Source: Ardenticatenaceae bacterium (GTDB lineage: Bacteria; Chloroflexota; Anaerolineae; Promineifilales; Promineifilaceae). Taken from it: a DNA stretch of 64,000 nucleotides. Shown one piece after another: positions 5,811-61,033 of the stretch; position 1 is the first letter of the stretch, and each line of letters starts with the position of its first letter. The DNA lies in assembly GCA_020634565.1 (NCBI GenBank), contig JACKBN010000020.1:885-64884 (forward strand), written 5' to 3'. The position numbers were made by a program, and so were the translations under genes. The notes beneath the pieces were generated by a model that was given only the letters and a program-made list of their open reading frames with translations, was not told the origin of the DNA and made no database searches.

Positions 5811-7568
5811 TTAGGGCTGTCCTGTCAATAAATCGGCCCGCACCCAGACAATAGCCCGCTCTACAGGCGTAACGGCCGTTGACTGATGAAAAAACCACCA
5901 GCGAAACGTGTCGTACAAAATGGTGGCCGATGGTTCGGTAAGTGGGATGGGCTCCAGACGACGGATGGCAAAATCGCTGCCGCTGTAGCTGACCGCCAGC
6001 GGTAACTCTGGATTGGCGTCGGTAATGATGACTTGCTGCGTGGGTGTTAGCGGCAGCGCGTTGAGCTGCTCCAGTCGGGGATACGCTTTCAGGTACCAGT
6101 TCAGCGCTGGCACATCCAGCCGGGTGCCAATTTGCAGCTGCGTATCAGAATTGGCCAGCTGGCGCGATAGGTCGCGCACGGTGGTATCCAGTTCACGCAT
6201 GGCAAAATCGGTGCCGCTGCTGACCCAGCGCTCGCGCGGATCGTTGGCTCCTTCCTGAGCCAGCCACCAGCCCGTGCCCCATTGGTAAAAAATGAAAAAG
6301 CCTAAAATGGCCAGCAAGACGCCTTGGGGAACGGCCGTTGCATCTTCCGAAGCGGTAAAATAGAGCACCAGCCCCACAAACAAAATCGCAAGCAAAATGA
6401 CCATCAAATAAATGGTGCTTTCTGGTGGATTTACCTGGGCTACACGTCCTAGACGAGCCAGATTTACAAAAATCACAAACGAACCAGCCAGGCTGACACC
6501 CCCAGCAATGCCGCTGAACCAATCCCACCGGCGACGCCAGGCCGCGTTGACCAAAATGCCTGCCAGTAAGGCGGTGGGCAGGGTGAGCAGCAGCCCATTG
6601 CTCATGAACGCTCGCTGGAGCAGCAGCAAAATCAGGCTGCCGCTGAACCAGTAAACGGCAAACAGCGCCAGCGGTTCACTGCGGACGATGGCCCAAATCA
6701 GGCCAAAAACCACCAAAATGACAAGGGCTGGCTCGTACCGCACAAAAGCGAGCAGCGGATCGAGCGTGCGTGCGCCGCCGAACTGCTGGAACCATTCGCC
6801 TGCGAGTCTGGCAGAACCACCCAACCCATTGGGCAGCAGCAAAAAGAAGGTGCTTAGCAGCAAAAACACGACGATGCCAACGGCCGTTCCCTTGCGCCAG
6901 TTGGTTTCGGTTGGTTTTACGTGCCAGCCTTCTACAAATAGCGAAAGCCCCAGTCGCGAATGGACAAACCAGGCTAGCAGCAGCGTCACCAGGCCGCTGT
7001 AAAACAGGGCTGAACTGCTCAATCCGAGGCCCAGCGCGGCAAAAAGCGTGTACAGCCAGCGCACAGCGGCCGTTTCCTGGTAGCGAATAAAGGCGATGAG
7101 CATCAGCAGCAGGGCAAAGAGGGCAATGCTGTCGCCGCCAACCGTGCGGGAGGCAATGGTATTGAGGGGAGAGATGGCCAGGAGAACGGCCGTTACCAAC
7201 GCGCCTTGGGTGCCCAAACGATGGCGCAGCAGCCAGGGCAGGCCGATGAGACCCAGCCCAAACAAGGCTGGAATCAAGCGCATGACCCCATCGCCAAAGC
7301 CAAACACCTGTGTGAGCCAGCTGGTGAGGCTGAAATAGGCAGGGCTTCCTGCGCTGAGCATGACCGCCTCCGGCTGCCAGAAGCGCCACACTTCCAGCGC
7401 TTGCAGCGCTTCAGTATCGGACAAGGGTAGATAACCAAGATTTGCCAGGCGCAAAATCGCGGCTGCCAGCAAGATAAGGCCCAGCAAGCCATCCGCCAGC
7501 GTCAGGCGGCTTAACCAACCGCTAATCGGCTGGCGATGCACAACTTGGGGCGTGGGAAATATCTCCAA
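5811..7568 (-). CDS. Divergent GT-C-fold (PMT_2/ArnT-like) polytopic membrane protein
   Basis: 585 aa with more than 10 hydrophobic segments. The N-terminal arrangement (LRLANLGYLPLSDTEAL) resembles the loop-1 acidic motif of GT39/GT83 enzymes. A hydrophilic C-terminal domain of ~150 aa follows. The stop is 1 nt from the sigma gene start. Confidence 0.5.
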   Translation of the reverse strand: MEIFPTPQVVHRQPISGWLSRLTLADGLLGLILLAAAILRLANLGYLPLSDTEALQALEVWRFWQPEAVMLSAGSPAYFSLTSWLTQVFGFGDGVMRLIPALFGLGLIGLPWLLRHRLGTQGALVTAVLLAISPLNTIASRTVGGDSIALFALLLMLIAFIRYQETAAVRWLYTLFAALGLGLSSSALFYSGLVTLLLAWFVHSRLGLSLFVEGWHVKPTETNWRKGTAVGIVVFLLLSTFFLLLPNGLGGSARLAGEWFQQFGGARTLDPLLAFVRYEPALVILVVFGLIWAIVRSEPLALFAVYWFSGSLILLLLQRAFMSNGLLLTLPTALLAGILVNAAWRRRWDWFSGIAGGVSLAGSFVIFVNLARLGRVAQVNPPESTIYLMVILLAILFVGLVLYFTASEDATAVPQGVLLAILGFFIFYQWGTGWWLAQEGANDPRERWVSSGTDFAMRELDTTVRDLSRQLANSDTQLQIGTRLDVPALNWYLKAYPRLEQLNALPLTPTQQVIITDANPELPLAVSYSGSDFAIRRLEPIPLTEPSATILYDTFRWWFFHQSTAVTPVERAIVWVRADLLTGQP

Positions 7569-7620
7569 TCTCTACTCTCCGATTTTCAATAATCAGTGTT
7601 CAGGCCAATTACTGACTTAC
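7561..7620. repeat. Short spacer built from family A/B repeat words
   Basis: CTCCAATCTCTACTCTCC...TAATCAGTG...AATTACTGACTTACTG lies between the GT-C-like gene start and the YYY-1 stop. Confidence 0.5.
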
Positions 7621-10289
7621 TGCGTACTGTTCTGCCAACGATAGATGGTAACAGAGCCGTTCTGGTAGGCAACTTCGAGCTGCTCGTTGAACTTGCTGGC
7701 ACCGGGCAAACGGCCGTTCACGCCGTAAGTATCCCGCTCCAGCCCACCAACGTAAATGTAAGCCACATCATAGGCATCGAGCACATTGGCAATGTTGTTG
7801 TTGTCCCAGTTGGGCAGCGTGTAAATTTCTCGCACAATGGGATCGCGCTCGGAAGGTTCAGGCGTGCTGTAGCCGCGCCACTGGTATTCATGCCCGGCCC
7901 AACCTAGCAGGGTGGGAATGCCAGTGCTAGCCGAGATACGGCCGTACGCCGAATATTGACCGCCCACTGCCTCAACAATTGTGGGTGTGCCATCTACATT
8001 GTCACGCAGCCACATGATTGCCGCGTACTCATCTGGGTTGAAACTGGCTGTCTGTGCCAAGCCATTTAGCGTAGGTGGTTGCCGATTGACGGAGTCAACC
8101 GGCCCGCGAAACTCGATAGCACGAGTTTGGACGGCAAGAATAGGAAAAAGCAAGGTTCCTATGAAAACGGCCGTATACACCACGGTCACGCCCGCAGGTA
8201 CCAACTTGTGACCGCTTTCTCGCGCCACTAGCCACAAGTAAGAGAGACTAAATAACCCCGCAACGCCAAACATCACCCACGTCTGGTAATAGAATTTAAA
8301 AACTGTGTTTAGCCGCACGCCAAAATTATCGCGCAAATAGACAAACTCTGGCCCAAGAGTGAGCAGAGCGCCAGTAGCGATGAGGAGGAGGATAAATGGG
8401 AGCGGCGAGGGGCTGACCTTTGCCGCAACCGGCACGCTGATTGGTTCTACCGCTTCCTCAGCGAAATTGTCCGCATCTTCCGGCTGGGTTTCTGTTGCGG
8501 TAGCTTCGTCTTCTGCCCCAAATAGTCCTTGCCAGGCCATCACGACCAGCCCCAGCAAAGCTGCCAGCATGAGCGTGACGCCGGGGATGGCCACTTTGGC
8601 CTGCACAATGGCGGGAAGAATGGCAAATACGGCCGTAGCACCCCAGCCAAACGCCACATTTCCTTCTGGACGGGGTGCCAGAGTGAGACCCAGTTCATTA
8701 GCCAAGCCTACAATTCTGCCTGCCCCGTCGGCGCTGCTGGCAACAATTAGCCCCAGCAGCACCGCCAGCACAAACAAACCAAGAATGAGCGAAACGGCCG
8801 TTATCACCCCCGCCTTCCACTGCTTAAACTTGTAGCGACTGACCAAACTCAACACCAATGTCCAAATACTCAGCAGCGGTAGACCAAAAATAATCAAAAA
8901 TTGCGGCAGACGTGTGGGGCGTACCAGCGTAGGCAGCAAATAAGGCGCGCCCGCCTGCGAGCGAAAGCCCAAATAAAATGGCAGGTAAAGAAAAATCGCG
9001 GGAATAACCAGCAAAATGGCCAGCCATATCGCCTCGGTAAGCCACTGGTTGCGCCAGCCAAAGCGTCGCCAGCGGTTCAGTATAAACGCCCCCAGCACCA
9101 CAAATAGATGAACCAGCACATCCCACGTGTTGAGGAAGGACAATCCGCCCAGAATCAGCACGGTAATTGCCCAAAGCGGCTTGTTTGGTACAAGAGATTG
9201 GAGATTAGAGATTATAGATTGATTGCTAGCCTTAATCTCCAATCTGAGGTCTCCGGTCTCCTTTTCTTGTAGCCACCACAAGAACGCCACCGCCAGACTC
9301 AAAAAGGCAAATGGCAGTGCCATGACATGGGGGTGCATATCGCCCAAAATAAAGCTAAAGCCGGGAAATTCTGCAATGGGTTCTAGCCCCTCGATCACTT
9401 GGCCAGACAAGGAATATTCATTAATGACGCGGGAACTGCGCCACCACCATAAATATCGTGGACTTTCTATATCAACTGCTGGTCCATTAATGTTGCGTAC
9501 GTCGAGCCATGCCCAAAATTCGGTGGAACCTATGCCATTCCCGTGTAACGTTTCCAGGATGACCTGTAGGTTTCCCGCTATAGGTAAAGCAATCGCCGCC
9601 ATCAGTCCCAAAGTCAGCGCCAGACGAGACGCGGCCTGTTTGAGGTGTTGCCCGTAACTGAGCACAAGATTATAAACAAGCCCAAATGCACCCACGCCCG
9701 TACCTGCAAGTAGCCAGGCAATGCCTAAATTAAAGGCAACTGGTTCAGAAACGGCCGCTAATCGAGCCAGCACCGAGGTCATCACATAACCAAAATAGTA
9801 GTAGCTAATGGCATAGCCAGAGAGCCATGGATCGACCGGAGGGAAGACTGGGCTGCGGCTGGCTGCGTTGAGAAAAGCAAACTCCATTGGTTTTTCGGTT
9901 CCGACGATGGCCGGGTTTTGAGCGCGCACCCAAACCCACAGGCCAAACAGCACCGCAAAAATCAGCTCGGTGAGCAGAATGTGCCGCCAACTGTCGCTGA
10001 GCCAGGTGCGCAGTTCGGTGCCTGTGTGGCGATATGCCCAGTAAGAAAGGCCCACCACCAGCGCCACCGCCAGCAAAATTCCGCCCAGATTATTTTGCAA
10101 AAAGCCCAGGCTGCCCAGCATCCAGAAAAGGTAGCTCACCAGCAGCAGCGACAGCATCTTGACAAACGCATAGCCGCGATCAGGCAGCTTTTTGAAGAGG
10201 GTGAAGGCCAGGGGGGTAACGGCCGTTCCCAACAGCAACAGCACAGCCCACCATCGAATCGCCGCAAAAATGTCTTCCCAAGCTAGCAT
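7617..10289 (-). CDS. DUF2298 / TIGR03662 'Chlor_Arch_YYY' membrane protein (copy 1)
   Basis: 890 aa and strongly hydrophobic. The signature reads VDPWLSGYAISYYYFGYV (YYYxG motif). Confidence 0.75.
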   Translation of the reverse strand: MLAWEDIFAAIRWWAVLLLLGTAVTPLAFTLFKKLPDRGYAFVKMLSLLLVSYLFWMLGSLGFLQNNLGGILLAVALVVGLSYWAYRHTGTELRTWLSDSWRHILLTELIFAVLFGLWVWVRAQNPAIVGTEKPMEFAFLNAASRSPVFPPVDPWLSGYAISYYYFGYVMTSVLARLAAVSEPVAFNLGIAWLLAGTGVGAFGLVYNLVLSYGQHLKQAASRLALTLGLMAAIALPIAGNLQVILETLHGNGIGSTEFWAWLDVRNINGPAVDIESPRYLWWWRSSRVINEYSLSGQVIEGLEPIAEFPGFSFILGDMHPHVMALPFAFLSLAVAFLWWLQEKETGDLRLEIKASNQSIISNLQSLVPNKPLWAITVLILGGLSFLNTWDVLVHLFVVLGAFILNRWRRFGWRNQWLTEAIWLAILLVIPAIFLYLPFYLGFRSQAGAPYLLPTLVRPTRLPQFLIIFGLPLLSIWTLVLSLVSRYKFKQWKAGVITAVSLILGLFVLAVLLGLIVASSADGAGRIVGLANELGLTLAPRPEGNVAFGWGATAVFAILPAIVQAKVAIPGVTLMLAALLGLVVMAWQGLFGAEDEATATETQPEDADNFAEEAVEPISVPVAAKVSPSPLPFILLLIATGALLTLGPEFVYLRDNFGVRLNTVFKFYYQTWVMFGVAGLFSLSYLWLVARESGHKLVPAGVTVVYTAVFIGTLLFPILAVQTRAIEFRGPVDSVNRQPPTLNGLAQTASFNPDEYAAIMWLRDNVDGTPTIVEAVGGQYSAYGRISASTGIPTLLGWAGHEYQWRGYSTPEPSERDPIVREIYTLPNWDNNNIANVLDAYDVAYIYVGGLERDTYGVNGRLPGASKFNEQLEVAYQNGSVTIYRWQNSTQ
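9194..9262. repeat. Family A heptamer (GGAGATT/AATCTCC) inverted block inside the YYY-1 coding sequence
   Basis: A 13-bp perfect inverted repeat pairs 9195-9207 with 9233-9245, flanked by further GAGATT/TCTCC units. It is translated as EIKASNQSIISNLQSL. Confidence 0.85.
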
Positions 10290-10297: not shown

Positions 10298-13200
10298 CTA
10301 ATTACTCAACGAAATCGCACTGCCATCCAAAACTTTATAAATACTTGTCCCAGCGTTGCGATAAACTTCCTCTAAAACGCCCATTTCAACCATCTGGTCA
10401 AACTTGTTCAATCCGGCGGGTGTGTACAGCACCCACTCCAACTGGCCAACGTAGATGTAGCTCACGTCATACTTGGCCAGGATGTTTTGCGCTTCTGGCA
10501 CGTTGGTGCTGTTGTACAGCGTAGCCACATCCCGCAGCCGCTGGTCGATAAACTGGCCGGGCAAAATGGCCCGCTGCTGCCGCTGATGGCCACTCCAGCC
10601 AATGATGCCGGGCAGGCCCGTGTACATCGCTACGCGGTTGGTGATGGAGCGATAGTAGTTGTCGCTGTACCCCTCGGCCACCACGGGTGAGCCAGGGATG
10701 TTTTGCTGCATCCACTTCAATGCTTCGTAATCGAAGGAGAGCGGTACGTTACCCCCGCCAGCCGCTCCCTGGCTTTCAAAATAGTTGGCGTAAGGCATGA
10801 AGGCCATACCGTCTAGCGTCACGGGCGCTTCCTGGCTGAGGCGCACTTCCCACTTGGCCTTGGTGGCCAAAATTGGGTAGAGGGCCGCGGCAGCAACGAG
10901 GACACCCAGCACTGCCAGCCACGTTTTGCGTCTGATCTCTTTCTTTTGGATAGAAGGCCAGGCCCAAACGGCCGTTACGCCCCCCACCACGCTTAAAATC
11001 AGCCACACCTGCATGTAAAACTTGAAGACGGTGTTCATGCGCCCGACCGTGTTTTCCACCACAAAAAACTCGACAAACAGGGTGATGGCCAACGCCGAGG
11101 CGATCAAAATGAGCACGATGCGGCGGGCGGTGGGCAAATTGGGCTGCAAACCAAGCAGTCCGGCTATCACCGTGAGCGTTAGCACAACGGGAGCAATCCA
11201 ATAACCCATGCGGAACAAAATCAGCAGCAGGATGATGTACAGGCCCAGCGCCAGGAGCATTGGCGCTGCCGCCGGTTCCCATTGCCGCAAACCATCTTGC
11301 GTCCAGCTTTTGGTCCAGGCGCGAAACTCTCGGGCCAAATGGGTCAGAACGAAAAACAGGAACAGGCCGTAGATGACCAGATAATTTCCCAAATAGCTGG
11401 TTGACCCGTCCCAAGGGGCAAGTGAGTTGAAACCAGCGCCGAAGTTGCTGCTAAACGGCCAAAAGAGCAAGAAGGCCAGGCCGATGAGTACGGCCGTTTT
11501 CAGCCCAATCTGGCCCAAAAGTTGCAGGTTAAAGGTACGGCCGTTCTCCTCAATCACCGCATAAACCACCGCCAACACGCCAATCACGGCGTAGGTCGGC
11601 AAATCCCAAATGTTGGTCGCTTGCAGCACGCCAATGGCCAGCGCCCCCACAAACCAGATGAGCGCCGTTTCCCACCAGGCTGTACCTACAGCATCCGATT
11701 TGTTTTTGGCTTTTAGCGCCAGCGAAATGGCCCAGGCCAGCGCCAGCATTGTCAGCGGCAGGGCAATCATGTGGGCGTGCAAATCGCCGTAGAGGAAGGT
11801 GAAGAAAGGAAATTCAGTGATGGGGCCAGCTTCGCCTTCGTTAAAGTTAAGGGCACGGGAGGCGAGAAAGAACCAGTCGCCGGGATAAATCGGCGCGGGT
11901 GTGCCGCTCAGCACTTTGAAACCGCCGTCCAGGGTGCGAACAGCCGTTCCCACCAGCGGAATGTTCTCTTCCAGCGTCGGATTGCCCGCCTTGTACCACG
12001 CATCGGTTAGCACCCCCACCTCCGCCAGGTTGCCCAGGAGGATGGCCAGGGTGATGGCGATCAAGCCAGCGTAAATACTTGTTCTTTGACCTGGAGACAG
12101 GGTGATAAGGTGACGGGGTGACGGTTCATTCACCTTGTCACCTTGTCTCCGGGTCACCTTGTCACTAGAAGACACTAAATCATACGCTATGGAGAACACC
12201 GCCATGCCCGTAAAGCTGAACAGCATGGACAAATTCAGGTTGTAGGCAATGGTCGGGACGATGCCTAAAATTTTGGTTAGCACGCCAGCATAGACGAAGC
12301 CGTAGTAGTAGTAATTGATGTAGCCGCCCGCAAACCAGGGATCGTAAGGAGGGAAGCTGGTGGATTTGAGAACGGCCGTAAAATAAGTCAGGTCCATCGG
12401 TTTTTCGCCGCCCCAGATCACGTCCCAGACGTCCGGGTTGCGCACGCGGATGAGGATGGCAATCAGGTACAGCGCCACCGCAATGAGTTCCACCACGCCA
12501 ATAAACGCCAGATTCTCCCGCACCCAGGTGCGAATTTCGCCACCGCGCCGGATGAGCACCAGCCCGCTCAAAATCACGATGATCAGCAGGGCCAGCAGGT
12601 GCGTGCCGCGCGAATTTTGGAACAGCTGCATGCTGGCCGTCAGCCAGACAAAGTAAGAGATCAGCAAAATGGAGAGAATGCGCGAGATGATGTAGCCTCG
12701 GCTGGGCAGCCAGCGGAAGATGGCAAAGGTGAGCGGAAACGTAAGCAGGCCCAACGCAATAACCGCCAGCCACCAAACGGCCGCTGCCAGCCCCGAATTC
12801 TGCGATAGTGCGCCATCCGGGTTAAAGATGTTGCTAAAGGTGCCATTGGCCCGCTGGGTTGCCGCGGCGGTTTCCGACAGCATCAGCCCATTCACCGCTT
12901 CTGTCGCCTGGCCGGGATTCATAAACACCGCCTGGCTCAAATCCACTTCGCCCAAAATAGTGGCCGTGTTTTCCCGACTGTACGCCTCGGTTTTGGCAAA
13001 AATCCAGACCGGCGGATGGTCGTAGACGCTAAACGCTTCTTCAGCAGCCAGATCGCCCGGCGGCGGCCAGCCAATCTCTGGCATTTCACCCCAGCCTACT
13101 TGCCCGGTGGTGTCGCTGATGTACAGCGGCCCGATTTGCAGCGGCGCGTGAAATTCAGCCACCAAGTCAAAACCCAGCTCGCCGTTGAACAGCGCTTCGT

Positions 13201-13741
13201 AGTAGCGGGTGGTCATAGGGTAGGTGAGCGGCAGGCGGGGCAGCGACCAGATGGCGCGCTGGCTGCTCAACACCACGTAATCGGCTTCGTCGAGCCAGGC
13301 TACCATCTCTTCCCGCTTTTCCGGGCCGTCGGGATTGGTGATGGGGCGCTGTCCGCCAGTGATTTCGGTGAAATGTGAACCGTAGGCAGAACGGCCGTCT
13401 ACGTCAAACGGTAAAATGCCGTCCCAATGCTCATTCATGAGCAAGCTGGTTTGGGCGCGCACGGTTGTGTTCCCGGCAGTGAGTTCCAGCATGAGTTGTT
13501 GCGGCGTGTTGGCGGGAACGGCCGTATCTGCCAAATCTAGCAGGTAGCTTGCTTCCTCTTCCGTCACCACCAGATCAGTGGTTTCGCTGGAGCCGTTGAT
13601 CAGACCCGCCCGTATGCTAATCTCCTGGCTTTGCCCGGTGCGCAGCCCTGCTGGATCGCTGGGGATGAACAGTTTATTGAGGCGAACGGCCGTTAGCGTA
13701 CCGTCTTCAGGCAATGCCGTCAGCAAAAGAGGGGTTGCCAC
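10298..13741 (-). CDS. DUF2298 / TIGR03662 'Chlor_Arch_YYY' membrane protein (copy 2) with an N-terminal ~330-aa soluble domain
   Basis: 1147 aa. The signature reads [19 protein letters not shown]. The GTG start is taken from the ORF track and no ATG lies nearby. The gene is in the same frame as the upstream frameshifted gene but separated from it by TGA and TAG. Confidence 0.7.
12093..12165. repeat. Family C octamer (CAAGGTGA/TCACCTTG) inverted block inside the YYY-2 coding sequence
   Basis: 12093-12113 pairs with 12130-12150 at 19 of 21 positions, and an extra TCACCTTGTCAC unit follows. It is translated as [26 protein letters not shown]. Confidence 0.85.
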
Positions 13742-16744: not shown

Positions 16745-16754
16745 GACCTGGGGT

Positions 16755-16830
16755 CAGTAATGGGTAAGCCAGTAATCAGTGAGCCGATTTAACGCATACG
16801 GAACACGGTTACCGATTCACTGGTTACTGG
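16755..16830. repeat. Family B (GTAATCAGTGA-type) hairpin element in the phosphoesterase/crp spacer
   Basis: CCAGTAATCAGTGA (16769-16782) pairs with TCACTGGTTACTGG (16817-16830) at 13 of 14 positions. Confidence 0.75.
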
Positions 16831-24763: not shown

Positions 24764-24765
24764 AA

Positions 24766-24836
24766 TCAGGTAATCGGTTATCGGTGAACGGTAATCGGTG
24801 TTTTTACGGATAACTGATAACCGATTACCGTTTACG
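24766..24836. repeat. Family B heptamer (CGGTAAT/ATTACCG) hairpin element in the selA upstream spacer
   Basis: A 14-bp perfect inverted repeat pairs 24769-24782 with 24816-24829, plus flanking heptamer units. Confidence 0.85.
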
Positions 24837-24838
24837 AG

Positions 24839-25853: not shown

Positions 25854-25892
25854 CCAGCTTCCTTTTTAACCTATCTTTTCTTACATGAATGA

Positions 25893-25963
25893 GGACACAG
25901 ATTTACACAGATGGACACGGATAAAAATAAAAAATCAGTGCAAATTTGTGTTTATCAGTGTCC
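25893..25963. repeat. Family D nonamer (CACAGATTT-type) element in the divergent spacer upstream of dnaE
   Basis: GGACACAGATTTACACAGATGGACACGGAT lies opposite CAAATTTGTGTTTATCAGTGTCC as imperfect inverted blocks. Confidence 0.65.
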
Positions 25964-26021
25964 CATCTTAAGCGAAAAAGCCCTTGCCAATAACCGCTCT
26001 CGAACATATGATCCAAAATGC

Positions 26022-40629: not shown

Positions 40630-40650
40630 ACCCTACTCCTTTGCGATTTG

Positions 40651-40719
40651 GAACACAGATAGACGCAGATTTCACGGATTTTTAGATTTATCTGTGTTTA
40701 TCTGTGGAAATCCGTGTCC
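40651..40719. repeat. Family D nonamer element between the TPP enzyme start and the kinase stop
   Basis: CACAGATAG ACGCAGATT TCACGGATT is followed by ATCTGTGTT TATCTGTGG AAATCCGTG. Confidence 0.7.
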
Positions 40720-40726
40720 TATTTTA

Positions 40727-42540: not shown

Positions 42541-42640
42541 TGTAATTTGGTAATTGAGTAATTGGGTAATTCACCCCTTCACCCGTTCACCTTGTCACCA
42601 AGCGTTCGAAGAACGCAGTCACCCCTTCACCTTGTCAAAA
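42541..42640. repeat. Family C octamer tract (plus GTAATTG heptamers) in the regulator/ABC permease spacer
   Basis: The tract reads GGTAATTGAGTAATTGGGTAATT, then TCACCCCT TCACCCGT TCACCTTG TCACCA. The small palindrome GCGTTCGAAGAACGC follows, then GTCACCCCTTCACCTTGTCA. Confidence 0.75.
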
Positions 42641-43866: not shown

Positions 43867-43886
43867 GATTTCCTCTAAAAATTAGT

Positions 43887-43944
43887 CACAGATTTCGCAG
43901 ATTACACAGATTTTTGATACAAAATTGAATCTGCGAAATCTGTG
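43887..43944. repeat. Family D hairpin element between the ABC permease and ATPase genes
   Basis: A 17-bp perfect inverted repeat pairs CACAGATTTCGCAGATT (43887-43903) with AATCTGCGAAATCTGTG (43928-43944). Confidence 0.9.
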
Positions 43945-43946
43945 GA

Positions 43947-44615
43947 TTATAAATGCTCCACGATCACGCCGTCGCGAATCCAGATGGTGCGTTGGGCGTG
44001 TTCGGCCACTTCGGGGTCGTGGGTGATCATCACAATGGTCATTCCCTTGGCGTGCAGGTCCTTGAAGATGTTCAGGATTTCTTCACCCGATTGGGTATCC
44101 AGCGCGCCGGTTGGCTCGTCGGCCAGGATGATGCTGGGGGTGGTTGCCAGGGCGCGGGCGATAGCCACACGCTGCTGCTGCCCACCAGACAGTTCGTCTG
44201 GTTTGTGGTCGATTCGTTGGCCTAACCCTACGGCCGTTAATGCTTCTTTGGCTCGTTCTAAGCGTTCGGAACGGCCGTAACCGCCATACATCAAAGGCAG
44301 GGCGACTTGTTTTTCGGCCGTGGTGCGCGGCAGCAAATTAAACTGCTGGAAGACAAAACCAATGCGCTGGTTGCGTACTTTGGCTTGCTCATCGTCGCTC
44401 ATCTGGCTGACGTCGATGCCGTCCAGCGTGTAGCGCCCGCCGGATGGGATATCCAGACAGCCAATCACGTTCATCAGCGTGCTTTTGCCCGAGCCAGACG
44501 GCCCCATGATGGCCACAAATTCGCCTTCGTTGATGGTCAGGTCCACGCCGCGCAGGGCATGTACCATCATCTCACCCATCTCGTATGACTTGGTAATGTT
44601 GGTTAGTTCAATCAT
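43947..44615 (-). CDS. ABC transporter ATP-binding protein (MacB/LolD-like)
   Basis: Walker A reads GPSGSGKST, the signature [15 protein letters not shown] and Walker [10 protein letters not shown] prefer the start [11 protein letters not shown] at ATG 44615, because the ORF-track N-terminal extension reads through a repeat element. Confidence 0.9.
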
Positions 44616-44638
44616 TTTACGTTCCTGATTCTTATCAA

Positions 44639-44678
44639 CAGATTTCACAGATTAAAAAGATTAAATCTGTAAAATCTG
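44639..44678. repeat. Family D hairpin element between the ABC ATPase and HlyD genes
   Basis: CAGATTTCACAGATT (44639-44653) pairs with AATCTGTAAAATCTG (44664-44678) at 14 of 15 positions. Confidence 0.85.
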
Positions 44679-44702
44679 CGAAATCTTTGATTCTTTCCTT
44701 TC

Positions 44703-48232: not shown

Positions 48233-48244
48233 GACTCAAGGTGG

Positions 48245-49423: not shown

Positions 49424-49427
49424 GACC

Positions 49428-50891
49428 CTACGCCAAATCTTCTAACACCAATTCAGCCGCCACCTTGCCGGAGAGTGTGACCATCGGGACGCCGCCGCCA
49501 GGGTGGGTGGTGCCCCCGGCAAAATAAAGCCCTGCAATTTGGTTGGAGCGGTTGTGCGGCCGTTTAAAAGCAGCCCAACGTGAATTTGGGGACGCGCCAT
49601 ACAGCGCTCCCTGCCACGCGCCGCTGCCTGCGGCCAAATCGTGCGGCGTCAAAATCTGCTCGGTAACGATGTGATCTCGCACGTCAAAGCCAAAGTTAGC
49701 AATTTTTTGCAGGATGAGATCGCGGTAATTTTGTTGGTTCGTGTGCCAATCGAAACGGCCGTCTAGCGGCGGCGCGTTGACCAGCACAAACCAGTTTTCG
49801 CCACCCTCCGGCGCGTGCTCTGGGTCGGTTTTGCTGGTGATGGCGATGTAGATGGTGGGATCATCTGGCGGTTGGCCTTGCGCAAAGATGGCCTCAAATT
49901 CGGCCGGGTAATCCGGCGAGAAGAGTATGTTGTGGTGCGCCAGTTCGGGAAACTGCTTGTTGATGCCCAGCAGGAGGATGAAGCCGGAGCAAGATGGGTC
50001 GAATTGTGAATTGTGAATGGTGGATTGTGAATTTTTAAGTAAGTGTTTTTGGGTGGTGGTGACGTCGAGGTTGCTGACGACGGCCGTTCCCTTTACTTTT
50101 TCCCCGTTTTCCAGGATGAGGTGGGAGAAACGGCCGTTAACCACCCCGATTTCCTGCACGCCGCAGTTGGTATGAATCGTCACGCCCAGTTCCTTGGCCA
50201 GCCTGGCCATCGCCTGGGCAATGGCGTAGATGCCGCCGCGCGGGTACCAGACGCCGCCGTTCAGCTCCACGTGGGCGATGACGTTGAGTGTGGCCGGGGC
50301 CAGGTATGGGCTGCCGCCGACGTAGGTGGCAAAGCGGCCCAAAAGCTGCCGCAGCTCTGGCGATTGCACATGATTTTCAATCGCCTGCTGCATCGTGCGC
50401 AGGCCGTCAATCTTGAACCAGTCTGGGAAGGGCACGCGCAGAAAACTGCGCCAGGTAGGTGGTCGGTCGTAGATGAAGACGGGGCCGGTGATGCGGTGAA
50501 TTTGCTCAGCGTAGCGCAAATACTTCTCATAGCCAGCCACATCTTCTGCGGCGATTTTGCGGATTTGCGTGGCCATCGCTTCCGGGTTTTCCTTGGCGTC
50601 GAGGACGGTGCCGTTAGGGTAAAAGTATCGTGTCAGCGGATCGACGGGTTCGAGCGTGAGGTAATCTTCTAGGCGGCGTCCGGCGCTGGTGAATAGCTCC
50701 TCAAACACGTGCCGCATGGTGATTACCGACGGGCCAATATCCCAGCGGAAGCCGTCGGCCTCGATTTGGCCCATCTTGCCACCCACTTGTGGGTTCTTTT
50801 CGTAAATCGTGACGCGCTGCCCGGCGGCCGCCAGCCGGATGGCTGTGCTCAGTCCGCCGATGCCTGCGCCGATGATGAGGATTTCGTTCAT
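49428..50891 (-). CDS. Phytoene-desaturase-family oxidoreductase (CrtD-like carotenoid 3',4'-desaturase candidate)
   Basis: 487 aa. The FAD motif reads ILIIGAGIGGLSTAIRLAAAGQRVTIYEKNPQVGGK. The C-terminal CrtI-family motif reads GLYFAGGTTHPGGGVPMV. It is the last gene of the carotenoid cluster. Confidence 0.7.
   Translation of the reverse strand: MNEILIIGAGIGGLSTAIRLAAAGQRVTIYEKNPQVGGKMGQIEADGFRWDIGPSVITMRHVFEELFTSAGRRLEDYLTLEPVDPLTRYFYPNGTVLDAKENPEAMATQIRKIAAEDVAGYEKYLRYAEQIHRITGPVFIYDRPPTWRSFLRVPFPDWFKIDGLRTMQQAIENHVQSPELRQLLGRFATYVGGSPYLAPATLNVIAHVELNGGVWYPRGGIYAIAQAMARLAKELGVTIHTNCGVQEIGVVNGRFSHLILENGEKVKGTAVVSNLDVTTTQKHLLKNSQSTIHNSQFDPSCSGFILLLGINKQFPELAHHNILFSPDYPAEFEAIFAQGQPPDDPTIYIAITSKTDPEHAPEGGENWFVLVNAPPLDGRFDWHTNQQNYRDLILQKIANFGFDVRDHIVTEQILTPHDLAAGSGAWQGALYGASPNSRWAAFKRPHNRSNQIAGLYFAGGTTHPGGGVPMVTLSGKVAAELVLEDLA
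50001..50036. repeat. Family E heptamer tandem (GAATTGT x5, imperfect) inside the CrtD-like coding sequence
   Basis: GAATTGT GAATTGT GAATGGT GGATTGT GAATTTT is translated on the minus strand as KNSQSTIHNSQF. Confidence 0.8.
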
Positions 50892-50901
50892 AGGTAATTG
50901 G

Positions 50902-50968
50902 GGAGATTGGAGACTGGAGATTGGAGATTAAAAAGTCTCCAGTTTCTAATCTCCAATCTCCAATCTCC
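50902..50968. repeat. Family A heptamer hairpin at the GT2 / CrtD-like junction
   Basis: A 15-bp perfect inverted repeat pairs 50916-50930 with 50947-50961. A nested GGAGACT/AGTCTCC pair is also present. The right arm encodes the last residues (LEIGD) and the stop of the GT2 ORF. Confidence 0.9.
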
Positions 50969-52058
50969 TGCCTTTCCACTCTGCCGTGCCGTGCCGCTGC
51001 CACTGAATTGATTGGAAGGCGATGCGGGTCATCATCAGGACGGAGATGGGCATGAGCAGGGCATCAAGGGGGCGTTGGTGGGTGAAAACGGCCGTTCCGC
51101 CCCGCAACACCACGCCAGCCAATCCCAAACCCAACGGCCACACATCCAAAGTGGTGGCAAACCAGAGCCAGGGAAACAGAAAAATGATCCAGTGAAATAC
51201 GGTCGAGAGCAGCAAAAAAGGGATGCTGTTGCCGTGCCCGGCCAGAATATTTTTGGCAAAGCCCGCCCGTACTTCTGGCCAATTTTGGTACATGCGGCAG
51301 CTTACCAGCCGGTTGCCATCGGCCATGCGCAGCCGCAATTTGTGCGCTTTGATAGCTTTGGCCAGGGCTACATCCTCGATGACGTTGTTGTGAACGGCCG
51401 TATGCCCCCCCACTTTTTCATACGCCTCGCGCCGGAACAGCAAGCATTGCCCGTTGGCAGCGGCGAAGGCGGGCAGATTTGTGTAATGCACCGGCAGGAT
51501 AGGCAGATAACACAAAATGGCAAAGCTCATGAGGGGCACAACGAGTCGTTCTGGCCAGGTTTCTGTTTGCTGCGTGGGCCAGACGGTGAGCAGGTCGGCC
51601 TGCTCGGTTTGGGCCAGGGCCAGCAGCGCCGCCAGCGCGTTAGGTGCCCAGCGCACGTCCGCATCTGCGAAGAGCAAGTACTCCCCGGTGGCGGCCTGGC
51701 TGAGCTGGTGACAGGCCCAATTTTTGCCCAACCAGCCGGGTGGCAGCGGCGTGCCAGACAGCAACCGGAAGCGGGCGTCGCCATTAGCGGCTTGGGTGGC
51801 GATGGCTCCGGTGCCGTCGTCGGACTGGTCGTCGAGGAGGATGAGTTCAAAGTTGGTGACCGTTTGCGCCAATAAAGCCCGAATCGTTTGGCCGATAACG
51901 ACCGCTTCGTTACGCGCTGGTATCAAAATAGAGAGTTTGGGCTGCTGCGCCAGTTGGGTTGCCTTGAGGCGGGGGAAGAAGAGGAAGTTGGAAACGGCCG
52001 TTATCCCCAAAATCAGCAGTGCGAATGAAGTGAATCCCCCGAGTATCGTTAAAATCAT
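50946..52058 (-). CDS. Family 2 glycosyltransferase (candidate carotenoid glycosyltransferase, CruC-like role)
   Basis: Motifs are LSILIPARNEAVVIGQTI, the ILLDDQSDDGT DxD region and FADADV. I prefer the start MILTILGG at ATG 52058, which forms an ATGA overlap with the upstream plsY-like stop. Confidence 0.7.
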   Translation of the reverse strand: MILTILGGFTSFALLILGITAVSNFLFFPRLKATQLAQQPKLSILIPARNEAVVIGQTIRALLAQTVTNFELILLDDQSDDGTGAIATQAANGDARFRLLSGTPLPPGWLGKNWACHQLSQAATGEYLLFADADVRWAPNALAALLALAQTEQADLLTVWPTQQTETWPERLVVPLMSFAILCYLPILPVHYTNLPAFAAANGQCLLFRREAYEKVGGHTAVHNNVIEDVALAKAIKAHKLRLRMADGNRLVSCRMYQNWPEVRAGFAKNILAGHGNSIPFLLLSTVFHWIIFLFPWLWFATTLDVWPLGLGLAGVVLRGGTAVFTHQRPLDALLMPISVLMMTRIAFQSIQWQRHGTAEWKGRRLEIGD

Positions 52059-52657: not shown

Positions 52658-52695
52658 AAGAAAGTGTGCAAGTGAGCAAGTGAACTGATTACCGA

Positions 52696-53505
52696 TTACT
52701 GCTTACTGAATACCGAGCGCCAGCCTAGCCAAACAAATAAACCCATCACCGTGCCGCCGACGAGGGCGGGGCCGACCAGACCCCAGAAGAAGAGCAGGCC
52801 GAATGTTTCCAGAAACCAGGTGATGGTGTAGATGATCAGCAGCGGGCGGGCGGGTAGATTTTGCGGTCGGATGAGGGCGGTGAGCAGTACGGCCGTTCCT
52901 AACCATCCCACATAATTGACCCAGGGAATACCAAAATAGCCGCTGGGTTCATGCCAGACCCACAATCCCCAACTAACCATTTGCGGATCGAGAAACAAAT
53001 CCCAGGCGGTGAAGGCTAGTCCGGCCAGCAGCAGGTACAGCCAGCGATTGTTGGCCCATCTGCCGGGCAGCTGCGCTTGCATGAGACGGGCCACGACCCA
53101 GGCGGCGGGCAGCATCATGAACCAGGCGAAGGGAATAAGTACTGGCACGTGGGCAATTTGCGGCTGCATCAAATCGGTGTAGCTGTAGCTGCCGAAGGGG
53201 AAGCCGGTGGTGGAGCCGAGCCATTCTACAAACAGGGTCAGTGCAGCGATGAGTACGGCCGTTCCCATCGTTTTGGGCCAGCCCCAGGAATCACGCACCA
53301 TTAGGAAAACGGCCGTTGCTTGCAGCAACACGCCCAACGTCAGCCCCAGCGGAATGATTTCCGGCCCCCAAATCCACTTCATGATGGGCAGGCTGATCAT
53401 GGCCAGCACCCAGAGGGCGATGAGGGTGGTGGTTAGAGATGGGGAGCCGGTAATCAGTGATCGGTAATCAGTAATCAGTTGCGGTTGGACTCGTTTGCTT
53501 TCCAC
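52696..53505 (-). CDS. cruF: Carotenoid biosynthesis protein, PF04240/CruF-like (carotenoid 1,2-hydratase candidate)
   Basis: 269-aa membrane protein. LFVEWLGSTTGFPFGSYSYTD, FTAWDLFLDPQMV and GIPWVNYVGW resemble the CruF family. The N-terminus is uncertain because codons ~9-20 are a heptamer repeat block. An alternative ATG lies at 53400. Confidence 0.65.
   Translation of the reverse strand: MESKRVQPQLITDYRSLITGSPSLTTTLIALWVLAMISLPIMKWIWGPEIIPLGLTLGVLLQATAVFLMVRDSWGWPKTMGTAVLIAALTLFVEWLGSTTGFPFGSYSYTDLMQPQIAHVPVLIPFAWFMMLPAAWVVARLMQAQLPGRWANNRWLYLLLAGLAFTAWDLFLDPQMVSWGLWVWHEPSGYFGIPWVNYVGWLGTAVLLTALIRPQNLPARPLLIIYTITWFLETFGLLFFWGLVGPALVGGTVMGLFVWLGWRSVFSKQ
53447..53480. repeat. Family B heptamer tandem at the 5' end of the cruF-like ORF
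   Basis: CCGGTAATCAGTGATCGGTAATCAGTAATCAGTT is translated as QLITDYRSLITG if the ORF-track start is used. Confidence 0.8.
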
Positions 53506-53508
53506 TTT

Positions 53509-54330: not shown

Positions 54331-54334
54331 GTTT

Positions 54335-54441
54335 TTCCGTTATCGGTAATCCGTTATCGGTAATCCGTGAACCGTGAACGGTAATCGGTAAGCGTTTTTA
54401 TCGTTTACCGACCACCGATTACTGATTACCGTTTACCGAAC
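54335..54441. repeat. Family B heptamer inverted block filling the cyclase/crtI spacer
   Basis: The left block reads CCGTTAT CGGTAAT CCGTTAT CGGTAAT CCGTGAA CCGTGAA CGGTAAT CGGTAAG. The right block reads CGTTTAC CGACCAC CGATTAC TGATTAC CGTTTAC CGAACAC. Confidence 0.85.
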
Positions 54442-55956
54442 ACTGACAGGCGCGCCCATGATCAAATCTTCCGCAATTTTGCTGGAGGAGAGCACACCGG
54501 GCAAACCTGCGCCGGGGTGCGTACCTGCACCGACAAAGTAGAGATTGTCGATATCTTCCGAGCGGTTGTGCGGACGGAACCAGGCCGACTGCGTCAAAAT
54601 TGGTTCGACGGAGAAGGCGGAGCCGAGATGGCTGTTGAGATTCCCCTGGAAGTGGCGGGGGTCAATGTGCCGCTCGGTGACGATGTTGGCCTGCAAATCG
54701 GGCAGGTAATTGTCTTCCAGAAACTGCATGATGGCGTCGCGATATGGCTTGGCCGTTTTGTCCCAGTCGATGCCGGAACCAAGGTGCGGCACGGGGGACA
54801 GGACGTAGAATCCTTCGTGCCCTTCGGGCGCAATGCTGGGGTCCGTCGTCGTGGGCATGTGTAGGTAAAGCGAAAAGTCATCGGACAGCTGCTTGTTTTT
54901 GAAGATGTCTTGTAGCAACCCTTTGTACCGTTCGCTAAGAATGATGTTGTGGTGGGCCAGATGGCCGTCGTTGTACCGCTTTTTCGTCCCAAAATAAATC
55001 ACAAAGAGGGACATGCTGTAGCGCGTCAGGTTTTTGTAGCGGAAGTCGGAGTTGCGCAGGCTGCGGTTTTTGCTGTCGATGAGTTGGGTGTAGGTGAAGG
55101 CGACATCAGCGTTGGAGATGACGTGGTCGGCATAATGCACGGTGCCGTCCTTGAGACGAATGCCAGTGGCGCGTTTGTTTTCTACGAGAATTTCATCTAC
55201 TTCGGCGTTGAGGTGGAAACGGCCGTTTAACTCCTCAATCAAGCGTCCAAAGGCACGTACTAAGGCTCCGGTGCCGCCCATCACGTAATGCACACCCCAT
55301 TCCCGCTCCAGGTAATGGATCATGGCGTAAATGGAGGTGGTGTCGAACGGGTTGCCGCCCACCAGCAGCGGATGGAACGAGAAGCAGCGGCGCAAAAATT
55401 CATTCTCGATGAACTGCGAGGCGTAATTGTAGACCGTTTTGTGCGACTGCAAGCGCAGCAGGTCAGGAATGACGCGAATCATGTCATTGACAGACAAAAA
55501 TGGTTGGTCGGCCAGCTCCACGAACCCTTTTTCAAAGATCGCTTTGGTGGTAGCCATAAACCGCTTGTACCCTTCACGGTCGGCCCGGTTCCACTTCTCA
55601 ATCTGGTTGAGGATGAATTCTTCGTCGTTGTTGTAGTCTAGATAACGGCCGTTATGGTCAAAGATGCGGTAGAACGGATCGCAGGCCACAAACTCCACGT
55701 AATCTTCCCGCTTGCGCCCCGCCAGCTCAAAAATATCGTCGAACATGAACGGCGCGGTGATGACCGTCGGGCCAGCATCAAACTTGAAGCCGTCTTGCTC
55801 AAAGACGTAGGCCCGGCCACCGGGCTGGTCCAATTTCTCAAAAATATCGACCTGGTAACCTTGTGCGGCCAGCCGTGCGGCTGCGCCCAAACCACCAAAT
55901 CCACTGCCAATGATGATAACTTTTTCTTTCATGATTTCGCTTTTCTGGGAGTACAT
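54433..55956 (-). CDS. crtI: Phytoene desaturase CrtI
   Basis: 507-aa ORF. The likely true start is [22 protein letters not shown] at ATG 55932. The C-terminal motif reads [18 protein letters not shown]. Confidence 0.88.
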
Positions 55957-56141: not shown

Positions 56142-56156
56142 CTCTTAACACCGTAT

Positions 56157-59608: not shown

Positions 59609-59647
59609 TTTTTTTAGTTAAAAGTAAAAAGTAACAAGTGGCACTTT

Positions 59648-60550
59648 TTACGCCTGAATTTTTGGTAATAAGTGGGCTACCACGTCGGCATCGTTTTGCG
59701 GAGTGGGGACATTGTTGAAAAGCTGCCATGTTTCGGTGTGGCTGGCGGTGGCGTCTGGTTCTAGCCGCACCAGCGGTGCGAGGCTTTCCAACTCCATGAT
59801 CTCGTTGTTGGTGAACAGTTCAGCCGAACAGTTGCGGTCTGGATAGTTAGCCTGTGGATCGTGAGGCGGGAATGTTTTGAGGAAGAAACGGCCGTTGTGT
59901 ACATATCCCAACCAACCCGGAAAATTGTCGCTGCCGATCTTTTGCGGTGTGGCTGCCTCTGGGTCTTGACGCAGCAAAATGAACTGCTCGCCCCAGGTCC
60001 AGCGTGGGTCCGCCATGTTGGTGTAGGCCCAGGTGACGAGGTTTCCGGTGGGCAGCAGGTTGCCTTCGTGACTGCCGCGCGGGGGAAGAGGGAATACGGC
60101 CGTTCCCCCCGTCGTCATCACCGAGAGCGCCCAAGGCGCCAGCTCTACAGCCCATGGATTCAGATTTTGCACGGTGTGCGTTAACGTGACTTTCGCCTCT
60201 TGCGGGTCAAGGGCAATGTCGATGATTTTTTGCATGCGTGTAGTGGTTTCTACGGGGGCGATGAAGCGGACAAACGCGCCATGATCTTCCACCGTGACCG
60301 GATTGTTATCCGGGTAGTATGTGCGCGGCTGCTGTTCAGGGGCCAGCCAGAAGCGGTGGCCACCATAGCTCTGCCATTCGGCATCCCCTGTGCGGCCAAC
60401 CTGGCCCGCAAGTTCGGCAAAGATATTTTCTCCGCCGACAAAGCTGAAGTGAATAATGCGGGGGCCAACATCGGCCGTCACGACAAGTTCGATCTGTTGG
60501 TTGCTGAGCTGAATGCAGTTTTCCCAGCCGAGAAAGGATATCTGTTTCAC
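59648..60550 (-). CDS. Hypothetical protein, DUF4380-like (aldose-epimerase-like fold suspected)
   Basis: 300-aa ORF with good coding appearance (GGHRFWLAPE). The family assignment is from memory and weak. Confidence 0.4.
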   Translation of the reverse strand: MKQISFLGWENCIQLSNQQIELVVTADVGPRIIHFSFVGGENIFAELAGQVGRTGDAEWQSYGGHRFWLAPEQQPRTYYPDNNPVTVEDHGAFVRFIAPVETTTRMQKIIDIALDPQEAKVTLTHTVQNLNPWAVELAPWALSVMTTGGTAVFPLPPRGSHEGNLLPTGNLVTWAYTNMADPRWTWGEQFILLRQDPEAATPQKIGSDNFPGWLGYVHNGRFFLKTFPPHDPQANYPDRNCSAELFTNNEIMELESLAPLVRLEPDATASHTETWQLFNNVPTPQNDADVVAHLLPKIQA

Positions 60551-60854
60551 ACTAACTCCTTGGAATCTTTTTTAGCGCAGAGTTACAGAGGTGCAGAGGT
60601 AAAAATGGGTGCTGCGTCTGTACCGCACCCGGAAATTTTACTATGAATGGCGGGGAAATGCAGGAGAACGGCCGTAATCCCAAAATTCCCTTTTAAGCAA
60701 CCGCCCCCTCACTTGTCATTTCGAGGTCCTCCGAGAAATCCCATTCAAAATTCACCTAAAGTTACCTTCATTAAGTAAGCCATTCTCAATTTCACTCCCA
60801 CCCCCAATCCTCACTTAAATCCTGCCATTTTGGGTTCATTCCACACGCGACGCC

Positions 60855-60917: not shown

Positions 60918-61005
60918 GGTTTGGGTGGCAGTTGATTGGGATTTCTCCCGATGGTCGAAATGACAAGAGTGTGTTGTGTTGCTTTGAGTTTTTCGCTTAC
61001 CAAAA

Positions 61006-61033
61006 TCACCTTGTCACCCTGTCACCTTGTCAC
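61006..61033. repeat. Family C octamer tandem overlapping the stop of the ABC-2/GldG gene
   Basis: TCACCTTG TCACCCTG TCACCTTG TCAC. The TGA stop at 61030-61032 lies inside the last unit. Confidence 0.8.

Follow-up and report, generated by a model that had tools for sequence, protein, structure and literature searches.

A stretch of 64,000 nt from the Ardenticatenaceae contig JACKBN010000020.1 (assembly GCA_020634565.1), referred to here as the window and used for all coordinates, carries short-unit repeats in many of its intergenic spacers and in some of its genes. These repeats are best read as several families of small (about 45 to 115 bp), dispersed palindromic elements that are non-coding by origin. 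Each is built of imperfect tandem words of 7 to 9 nt, followed by a short tip and then by the complementary words, in one polarity. The elements are multi-copy with unrelated flanks, are gained and lost between strains and species, change by whole units and are flipped whole. They persist where they are harmless: in the gaps between stop and start codons, at gene ends, where they supply new stop codons, and within proteins, in frame, at surface or loop positions. The elements are probably selfish, and it is considered reasonably likely that they are palindromic repeats maintained at the DNA level and reshaped by slippage and arm-to-arm correction. The kind of repeat is already known; what is new here is the occurrence of short-unit dispersed repeats in hairpin form, frequently in frame in genes, in filamentous Chloroflexota.

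Elements were sought with Tandem Repeats Finder (TRF), which identified arrays of period 7 to 10 at all of the coordinates where an earlier reading of the DNA from its letters (the sequence-only reading) had described arrays of period 7 to 9. Five further arrays were found, at 42542-42571, 52662-52683, 59616-59639, 60577-60600 and 63146-63165. The window contains 37 arrays of period 7 to 10, against a mean of 9.9 in 30 Markov-3 shuffles, and 10 stutter hairpins, in which an array has a complementary arm nearby, against a mean of 0.03. Arrays of period 7, 8 and 9 number 12, 10 and 12, compared with 1.8, 1.95 and 1.35 in the shuffled sequences. Stutter hairpins number 15.6 per 100 kb in the window; loci of unrelated genomes, 1.27 Mb in all, have 1.6 per 100 kb. 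The words GGAGATT (family A, complement AATCTCC), CGGTAAT (family B, complement ATTACCG), TCACCTTG (family C, complement CAAGGTGA) and CACAGATTT (family D, complement AAATCTGTG, period 9 to 10) are 2 to 7 fold over-represented relative to dinucleotide shuffles. Five recurring families had been proposed, and this stands for A to D; the fifth, GAATTGT, is a single array of a word that is not over-represented in the window (7 observed, 8.5 expected from dinucleotide shuffles).

When the sense strand is folded as RNA, 9 of 11 elements have z scores of -4 or lower, with free energies (dG) of -20 to -42 kcal/mol. The fold is weaker at 9190-9265 (z -2.6). The three perfect stems quoted by the sequence-only reading are exact at every base pair: 17/17 at 43887-43903/43928-43944, 15/15 at 50916-50930/50947-50961 and 14/14 at 24769-24782/24816-24829. 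The same reading described every element as a long hairpin, which is correct for the 10 stutter hairpins and too general for the rest. About half of the elements are one-armed arrays, not hairpins, among them four of those it listed (50001-50036, 52681-52712, 53447-53480 and 61006-61033), and 42571-42640, listed as 42571-42636, consists of direct arrays flanking a small palindrome (z +0.2). An assembly artefact was considered and rejected, because NCBI, ENA and JGI assemblies independent of one another contain the elements, as do four sequencing runs.

The words are found at many loci. On contigs of the same lineage there are 23 family B sites, spread over 16 contigs, 4 family D sites and 3 family C sites, and the word AAAGGCGC of the array at 63146..63165 occurs at four sites on four contigs. 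In four sequencing runs from activated sludge, word depth is 5 to 15 fold higher in the bins containing elements, the loose ends show an agreement of about 0.5, and contigs with differing continuations terminate at the arrays. A wider sample of family A was obtained by scanning JGI metagenome contigs for (GGAGATT)2 N4-34 (AATCTCC)2, and the hairpin is present on at least 120 contigs. Among the matches listed, to which the family A counts below also refer, 53 of 120 contigs have more than 0.5 copies per kb of ACGGCCGT, a palindrome abundant in the window, and 60 are without it; more than one lineage therefore carries the family A element. The flanks of 140 family A hairpins have nothing in common beyond decaying units.

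Sixteen hairpins on ACGGCCGT-rich contigs, with unrelated flanks, have a common 13-nt tip, GTGAACCTTCATC, in one orientation in 13 cases and in the other in 3. Since this tip is shared by 16 loci, an independent origin sixteen times over is not possible. The polarity of the elements is also fixed: for family A copies beyond those ascertained by the scan, and for families B and D, the word run always precedes the complement run (33 versus 0). Different word families can adjoin in one spacer, as with GTAATTGG and family C at 42535-42645 and AAGTGAGC and family B at 52658-52716, and family D adjoins family A on a further contig (L132, about 1040-1124). Such side-by-side arrays suggest that elements land in or beside existing elements.

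Presence/absence polymorphism, which the sequence-only reading had named as a check on mobility, is found between strains, and so is polymorphism in copy number. Four short ENA contigs encode an ABC ATPase identical to that of the window, yet the elements flanking it differ. Between the ATPase and permease genes the spacer measures 80 nt in the window; three of these contigs have 71 nt there and one has 89 nt, the steps being whole 9-nt units. In the 71-nt alleles (L082, L084 and L085) the entire hairpin, including its tip, is reverse-complemented relative to the window, with the flanks unchanged. The permease-regulator spacer is 111 nt in the window and 103 nt in L082, through the loss of one 8-nt unit. 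In L084 the family D hairpin is absent from the HlyD-ATPase spacer, which is 9 nt rather than 87 nt; when this empty site is compared with the filled site of the window, direct repeats of 5 to 8 nt flank the insert and the empty site has no clean match.

The element between the genes for a Crp-type regulator and a metallophosphoesterase is 86 nt in most of nine strain contigs; in L218 it measures 87 nt and gives a poor ungapped alignment. In the other strain contigs this spacer differs by 3.5 to 8.6%, compared with about 1 to 2% for the gene (4.6% in one). For the two elements that lie in frame in DUF2298 genes, population contigs contain no length variants, only single nucleotide polymorphisms (SNPs), and 7 of the 12 SNPs of one such contig are inside the element at 12093..12168.

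Orthologous regions were compared in a complete genome of Candidatus Leptofilum (L086) and in a second species, whose four strains (L087 to L090) are identical over 8.1 kb except for 2 SNPs. Every homolog of the DUF2298 protein of 890 amino acids, as far down as about 75% identity, has the in-frame element at this loop, as the peptide 'EIGDWRLE...QSLISNLQSL' that (GGAGATT)n and (AATCTCC)n encode. Among homologs at 57 to 63% identity it is patchy, and some of them have the same peptides in other loops (about amino acids 85-104 and 240-260). The orthologous hairpins in L086 and L088 are near-perfect (dG -60.9 and -51.2 for 126 nt) in proteins that are about 80% identical. In the PMT_2-DUF2298 paralog, one site is occupied by octamer family C in the window and by a heptamer family A hairpin in L086 and L088, and a second site, empty in the window, has a family A hairpin in L086 and L088 that adds 23 and 15 amino acids. 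The Crp-metallophosphoesterase spacer contains family B in all three species, with unit order and number differing. These comparisons show that positions can be long-lived while the sequence is continually rebuilt or replaced. Conservation of both position and sequence across distant relatives, which the sequence-only reading would have taken as a sign of ordinary terminators, is not the pattern here: some positions are kept across species and their sequence is remodelled.

A large minority of family A copies are within genes. If a copy counts as in frame when it has 60 or more open codons on each side, 34 of 97 judgeable copies qualify; with a looser definition 50 of 153 do, leaving 103 of 153 outside long open reading frames (ORFs). 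On the basis of Pfam and PDB alignments, the copies are in or between domains of proteins that include AroB, homoisocitrate/isopropylmalate dehydrogenase, MutS, a LeuA-like synthase, KsgA, IleS, a molybdopterin oxidoreductase and a penicillin-binding protein transpeptidase. The net insertion is 21 amino acids in KsgA and 18 in the homoisocitrate/isopropylmalate dehydrogenase. Junction peptides predicted from in-frame copies include WWLQEKETGDLR, and GDWRLEI/ISNLQSP in AroB and KsgA. Neither GGAGATT nor its complement has a stop codon in any of the six frames, whereas CGGTAAT carries TAA on one arm, and none of about eight two-armed family B hairpins is in an ORF; two one-armed arrays on the stop-free strand are. 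That the stop-free word is in ORFs in about a third of cases and the two-armed TAA-bearing form never is fits a selective filter on survival.

The intergenic copies of family A are in co-directional, convergent and divergent spacers in a ratio of 42:15:7, against a supply of 310:93:79. Spacer types are thus used approximately in proportion to their supply, and with about a third of copies in frame the proposal that the elements are specific to intra-operon spacers does not hold. The related statement that they sit precisely in the gaps between co-transcribed genes is true in part of the window, where Pfam annotation places nearly all genes on the minus strand. The contexts given for it (HlyD/ABC ATPase/FtsX permease, crtI/cyclase and GT2/crtD-like) are correct, and the truly intergenic elements occupy almost the entire spacer, starting at or just past the stop codon and ending 5 to 20 nt before the next start. 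Three elements, at 9194-9262, 12093-12165 and 50001-50036, are instead in frame within ORFs, single Pfam DUF2298 or Amino_oxidase matches crossing them; the first two are in long ORFs for membrane proteins of the DUF2298 (YYY-type) family. At 50902-50968, 54335-54441, 52687-52716 and 61006-61033 the gene upstream shares its 3' end or stop codon with the element.

When a synthetic stutter peptide was used as a protein query, most of the matches were short spurious ORFs. The named matches are mostly Chloroflexi/Chloroflexota and also include Candidatus Viridilinea mediisalina (class Chloroflexia), one Nostoc sp. and one fungal protein. Gene callers also make 'hypothetical proteins' of 30 to 100 amino acids out of GDWRLEI/SNLQSPI repeats from intergenic hairpins. 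No meaningful match to the stutter-coded peptides was found in NCBIfam, and no family A hairpin was found in the viral contigs scanned.

If selection acted on the hairpin in the mRNA, G.U mismatches on the sense strand would be expected to be tolerated and A.C mismatches would not. The ratio of G.U to A.C is 20:28 in 42 in-frame family A hairpins and 26:25 in 42 from co-directional spacers. Between 38000 and 57000 there are 27 terminator-like sites, equal to the count in shuffles, none of which is on an element, and the elements have no U tract. Rfam gave no match at the gathering threshold. This lack of strand asymmetry, U tract and Rfam match, together with the inversion of whole hairpins and the slippage of units, points to maintenance at the DNA level, with which side effects on expression are compatible. 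The fixed polarity and the near-perfect hairpins of the orthologs also favour constraint on the DNA over constraint on the RNA.

For such DNA-level selfish repeats, it is proposed that replication slippage would add and remove units. Pairing of the arms, as a hairpin or cruciform and through template switching or gene conversion, would keep the arms complementary and would also invert the element. New copies would be copied from existing elements, preferentially into or beside existing ones, and the one-armed arrays would be decayed or partial forms. Any effects on mRNA stability or on downstream translation would be a by-product and not the reason for the existence of the elements.

Several points weigh against this account. 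Neither a mobilising gene nor a terminal tag nor a target-site duplication was found, genes having been read within +-10 kb of chosen genes, and for this reason it is by their distribution only that the elements can be called mobile. In the 140 family A hairpins, GTAG and CGTC tags are present within 15 nt of the ends 4 to 12 times per tag, where about 12.6 would be expected by chance. The longest direct repeats in the flanks are 3 to 5 nt, which is the chance expectation, and the borders of the elements are blurred by decaying units. Several elements are kept in position across species and many end 5 to 20 nt before a start codon; both would be predicted by host function too. Related heptamer arrays in Nostoc (where this is partly shown) and in Beggiatoaceae have been proposed to affect expression (bioRxiv 10.1101/2022.06.06.494920; PMC4679880), and there may be an RNA role. 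The comparison of G.U with A.C involves modest counts and family A alone. In AroB (L107, 722-764) the stutter peptide replaces a segment of native length relative to PDB homologs, with no net insertion, and the CrtD-like element at 50001-50036 causes no net change in length relative to PDB 4REP; such native-length replacement is not predicted by a simple insertion model.

Of the other explanations, the one that survives best, unlikely as it is, is that these are cis-regulatory elements of the host, arrays or hairpins in mRNA leaders that serve as binding sites or structures and tune translation initiation, coupling or mRNA stability for the downstream or upstream gene in operons, a role also suggested for TAACTGA repeats and REP hairpins. 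It would account for arrays or 3' arms that end just ahead of start codons, where canonical Shine-Dalgarno motifs are often missing, and for the retention of an element in the Crp-metallophosphoesterase spacer across species. It also has analogues in the TAACTGA repeats about 1 nt before starts (PMC4679880) and in heptamers that alter recF and recO expression in Nostoc (10.1101/2022.06.06.494920). Regulation does not explain why about a third of family A copies are within unrelated ORFs, why the spacer types are occupied roughly as supplied, or why one site can hold different word families. Nor is it readily reconciled with presence, unit number and orientation that vary between strains whose flanking proteins are identical, or with sense-strand G.U mismatches that are not in excess over A.C.

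It is decidedly less probable that the arrays are purely local simple sequence repeats, formed by slippage in place from a chance proto-repeat, with quasi-palindrome correction making the other arm and no copying between loci. Units are indeed gained and lost whole, there are many words, several of them found only once in the window, and the same-length replacements in AroB and CrtD are as this explanation would have it. In addition, heptamers are generally the most slippage-prone class of long simple sequence repeats (Mrazek 2007, as cited in PMC4692102 and PMC4679880). However, a local origin leaves unexplained the identical words and identical 13-nt tip at many loci with unrelated flanks, the net insertions of 15 to 23 amino acids in conserved proteins, the fixed polarity, and a density tenfold that of other genomes. 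Finally, ordinary intrinsic terminators or attenuators between genes can be dismissed with little hesitation, as the sequence-only reading had supposed, since despite stable hairpins and intergenic positions none of the 27 terminator-like sites in 38000-57000 coincides with an element, U tracts are missing, and copies are found in frame in ORFs and in divergent spacers.

Literature searches for the words and for the peptides they encode found no description of either, and none of such repeats in Chloroflexota. The sequence-only reading had likened the elements to the short tandemly repeated repetitive (STRR) sequences of cyanobacteria and to repetitive extragenic palindromic (REP) elements, and this is right in kind; the words recur at many unrelated loci. 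The STRR units are CCCCAGT, TTGGTCA and CAACAGT. No consensus unit of the window equals any of these words, and the host is not a cyanobacterium. Families A and B resemble STRR, with arrays of period 7 at numerous loci; in families C (8 nt) and D (9 to 10 nt) the unit length is different. The nearest unit, the family A variant GGAGACT, is one substitution from STRR1 (GGGGACT after rotation and complementation).

The heptamers GGGAATC of Xanthomonas and GGGGAYT of Nostoc PCC 7120 are 89 to 93% intergenic, mostly between co-directional ORFs; in Xanthomonas 70 to 75 convergent pairs are capable of forming stem-loops, and in both the length and sequence of the arrays vary among close relatives while the position is often kept (Rehm et al. 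2015, PMC4692102). The present elements are similar in having tandem 7-nt words at many loci, mainly intergenic, with convergent pairs able to form stem-loops, and family A (GGAGATT/GGAGACT) is one substitution from the GGGGATT of Nostoc. They are dissimilar in that the units GGAGATT, CGGTAAT, CAAGGTGA and CACAGATTT contain no GGG, and being without a G-tract have no G-quadruplex potential. The host also differs, being one of the Chloroflexota; families of 7, 8 and 9 nt coexist, the hairpin form is the rule, and one copy in three is in frame.

In Beggiatoaceae, cyanobacteria and Bacteroidetes, TAACTGA repeats form arrays that are almost all direct (169 sets, against one indirect) and share one orientation relative to the gene, mostly ending beside start codons (MacGregor 2015, PMC4679880); Chloroflexi go unmentioned in that study. 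These too are heptamer arrays near start codons in large filamentous bacteria, with a 'reverse' strand that is translatable and a 'forward' strand that carries stops. The family B words TAATCGG, TAACCGA and TTACTGA are the same word or one substitution away. Another contig (L172) has exact (TCAGTTA)n runs and the window has partial ones at 24764-24838; the majority of family B units are one-substitution variants. Unlike TAACTGA, family B is mostly two-armed and found in both orientations, and in three cases in the window the 3' arm ends 6 to 11 nt before a start. With rotations allowed, the near-matches of family A to the Nostoc and STRR1 units and of family B to TAACTGA are only mildly unlikely by chance and are best treated as a lead.

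Rickettsia palindromic elements (RPEs) are in-frame palindromes in many unrelated, often essential genes, adding peptide at tolerated positions (Ogata et al. 2000, 2002, as summarised in PMC10969869). The likeness is that of a palindromic repeat in frame in many unrelated protein-coding genes. RPEs, which belong to an obligate intracellular alphaproteobacterium, differ in having a family consensus of about 100 to 150 bp, whereas the elements here are 45 to 115 bp and made of 7 to 9 nt words; CGTC-type ends, a feature of RPEs (PMC3733652), were not found here. As with REP elements and REPINs, the repeats associated with RAYT transposases of the IS200/IS605 type (PMC3733652, PMC3116915), the palindromes are short, abundant, imperfect, mostly extragenic and sometimes intragenic, variable between strains, found between co-transcribed genes and thought to be selfish, but they have no GTAG/CGTC tag and their arms are tandem word arrays. 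Compared with miniature inverted-repeat transposable elements, the whole element is an inverted repeat, flanking direct repeats are at chance level and the borders are blurred.

Some of the control genomes carry dense stutter hairpins of their own: TCTAAAT/ATTTAGA in a Patescibacteria metagenome-assembled genome (MAG; L034, 5803-13780), AGGTTCTN, GTGACTN and TTGTTGG in a Dialister MAG (L022, 1986-14420), and a GCGAATA word of about 11 nt in an Anaerolineales MAG (L006, 6732-7760). The architecture may therefore be far commoner than the literature suggests.

In a species-level genome collection, the best relatives of the permease are at most 49% identical and belong to Chloroflexota. The DUF2298 protein is 83 to 84% identical to that of 'Candidatus Leptofilum sp.' and 55 to 80% identical to those of Ardenticatenaceae, Anaerolineae and Promineifilaceae MAGs. 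Over 20,669 positions compared with the window, assembly GCA_020634525.1 has 177 differences and neither insertions nor deletions. The runs containing the locus are activated-sludge or wastewater metagenomes, and Candidatus Leptofilum is a heterotrophic filament of activated sludge (PMC10746286). Judged by these protein identities, the host is a Chloroflexota relative of Candidatus Leptofilum (Anaerolineae), not a cyanobacterium. The palindrome ACGGCCGT has 134 copies in the 64 kb, where shuffles predict 1.17; both genes and spacers contain it, and two copies are adjacent at 42416-42431. The cyanobacterial highly iterated palindrome HIP1, GCGATCGC, occurs just 4 times in the window. The sequence-only reading was thus correct in seeing a HIP-like palindrome alongside the repeats in a non-cyanobacterial genome, and no mention of ACGGCCGT as an iterated palindrome was found in the literature searched.

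If this picture holds, Rickettsia would no longer be the sole lineage with palindromic repeats routinely in frame in housekeeping genes, and the new lineage would be free-living, abundant and environmentally important. It would link three poorly understood literatures, those on STRR, on TAACTGA and on the Xanthomonas heptamers. The differences in unit number, the inversions and the empty and filled sites form a natural allelic series that could be used to address whether such repeats are selfish or regulatory. At a practical level, the elements break short-read assemblies, create spurious short 'hypothetical proteins', and add the low-complexity peptides GDWRLEI and SNLQSPI to annotated enzymes of wastewater Chloroflexota.

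A more far-reaching proposal is offered tentatively, as one that may well prove too strong: that these are a novel class of fixed-polarity stutter hairpins in filamentous Chloroflexota (Anaerolineae, possibly Chloroflexia), in frame in essential genes at an RPE-like rate and kept palindromic by arm homogenisation. Such elements would undergo replacement of one family by another at hot spots and would spread without inverted termini, tags or target duplications. Their words, one substitution from the heptamers of filamentous cyanobacteria and Beggiatoaceae, would then point to shared machinery for generating heptamer repeats, or to exchange, among large filamentous bacteria.

The individual elements of the window, with dG in kcal/mol, are as follows. 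A degenerate family A hairpin found by TRF at 9190..9265 (dG -21.1) is in the DUF2298 gene 7617..10289 (minus strand) at amino acids 342-365. The frame is open throughout and a single DUF2298 match (50-674) spans it. An AlphaFold model of the 890-amino-acid protein, with a mean confidence score (pLDDT) of 56, predicts a low-confidence loop between helices at this point, which weakly suggests placement in a loop. The family C hairpin at 12093..12168 (dG -30.5, z -4.2; TRF, Pfam) is in the PMT_2-DUF2298 paralog 10298..13741 (minus strand) at amino acids 525-549. Family B hairpins fill the 86-nt Crp-type regulator/metallophosphoesterase spacer (16745..16830; TRF; dG -25.4, z -4.1) and a 75-nt spacer upstream of selA (24764..24838; dG -23.6, z -4.5), the latter having the perfect 14-bp stem and a 3' arm that stops 6 nt before the ATG. 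Family D hairpins were identified by TRF in the divergent spacer upstream of dnaE (25890..25966; dG -23.7, z -5.6) and in the spacer between the genes for a histidine kinase and a thiamine pyrophosphate enzyme (40648..40722; dG -21.3, z -4.7). Two more are in the ABC ATPase-to-permease spacer (43884..43947; dG -28.5, z -8.4), with the perfect 17-bp stem, and in the HlyD-to-ABC ATPase spacer (44636..44690; dG -20, z -5.8). The permease-to-response-regulator spacer has a composite at 42542..42640 that is not a long hairpin, consisting of GTAATTGG x3.8 followed by the direct family C arrays around the small palindrome.

In the carotenoid region, one-armed GAATTGT x4.7 (50001..50036; TRF) is in the CrtD-like desaturase ORF 49428..50891 and encodes KNSQSTIHNSQFD. 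The family A hairpin at 50899..50971 (dG -42.2, z -8.4), with the perfect 15-bp stem, covers the last codons and stop (50946) of the GT2 gene and most of the spacer before crtD. At 52662..52716, AAGTGAGC x2.8 (52662-52683) is followed by a one-armed family B array across the 3' end of Caroten_synth and the spacer before plsY (TRF), and many metagenome contigs with unrelated flanks stop there. At 53447..53480 a one-armed family B array, whose sense strand is TTACTGA-like (TRF), forms part of the first 20 codons of the called Caroten_synth ORF; its word depth is 5 to 10 fold higher, with loose ends and an agreement of about 0.5. The longest family B hairpin (54331..54445; dG -41.4, z -4.7) lies over the crtI stop and fills the 102-nt spacer before a lycopene-cyclase-like gene. 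The remaining arrays, all from TRF, are AGTAAAA x3.4 at 59616..59639, 8 to 30 nt upstream of the tex start; GCAGAGGT x3 at 60577..60600, upstream of ORF 59648..60550; a one-armed family C array at 61006..61033, over the stop codon of the ABC-2 permease gene 61030..63120; and CGCAAAGG x2.5 at 63146..63165, in the spacer upstream of that gene.

Three observations on the genes of the window are added. At 34823-35893 (minus strand), ORFs of 145 and 203 amino acids, the latter DUF3179, are in the same frame and are split solely by a TGA at 35456-35458. Reading through it would give the junction ...PVLAAY-U-AACRSG..., a possible U-x-x-C redox motif, and selA is present in the window (23357..24763). 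The DUF3179 family presumably has a Cys-x-x-Cys-type motif at the position of this TGA, and the pair may be a candidate selenoprotein. The dnaE gene (plus strand, 25911-29121) is split into overlapping ORFs in different frames, 25911..27500 (PHP, N-terminal) and 27415..29121 (finger, HhH); a frameshift, a fault in the assembly or a programmed event could account for the split. In GCA_020634525.1 and in related species the PMT_2-DUF2298 fusion is one ORF of 1689 to 1708 amino acids, and a frame change in the window at about 14011-14566 (minus strand; tblastn) is a second frameshift.

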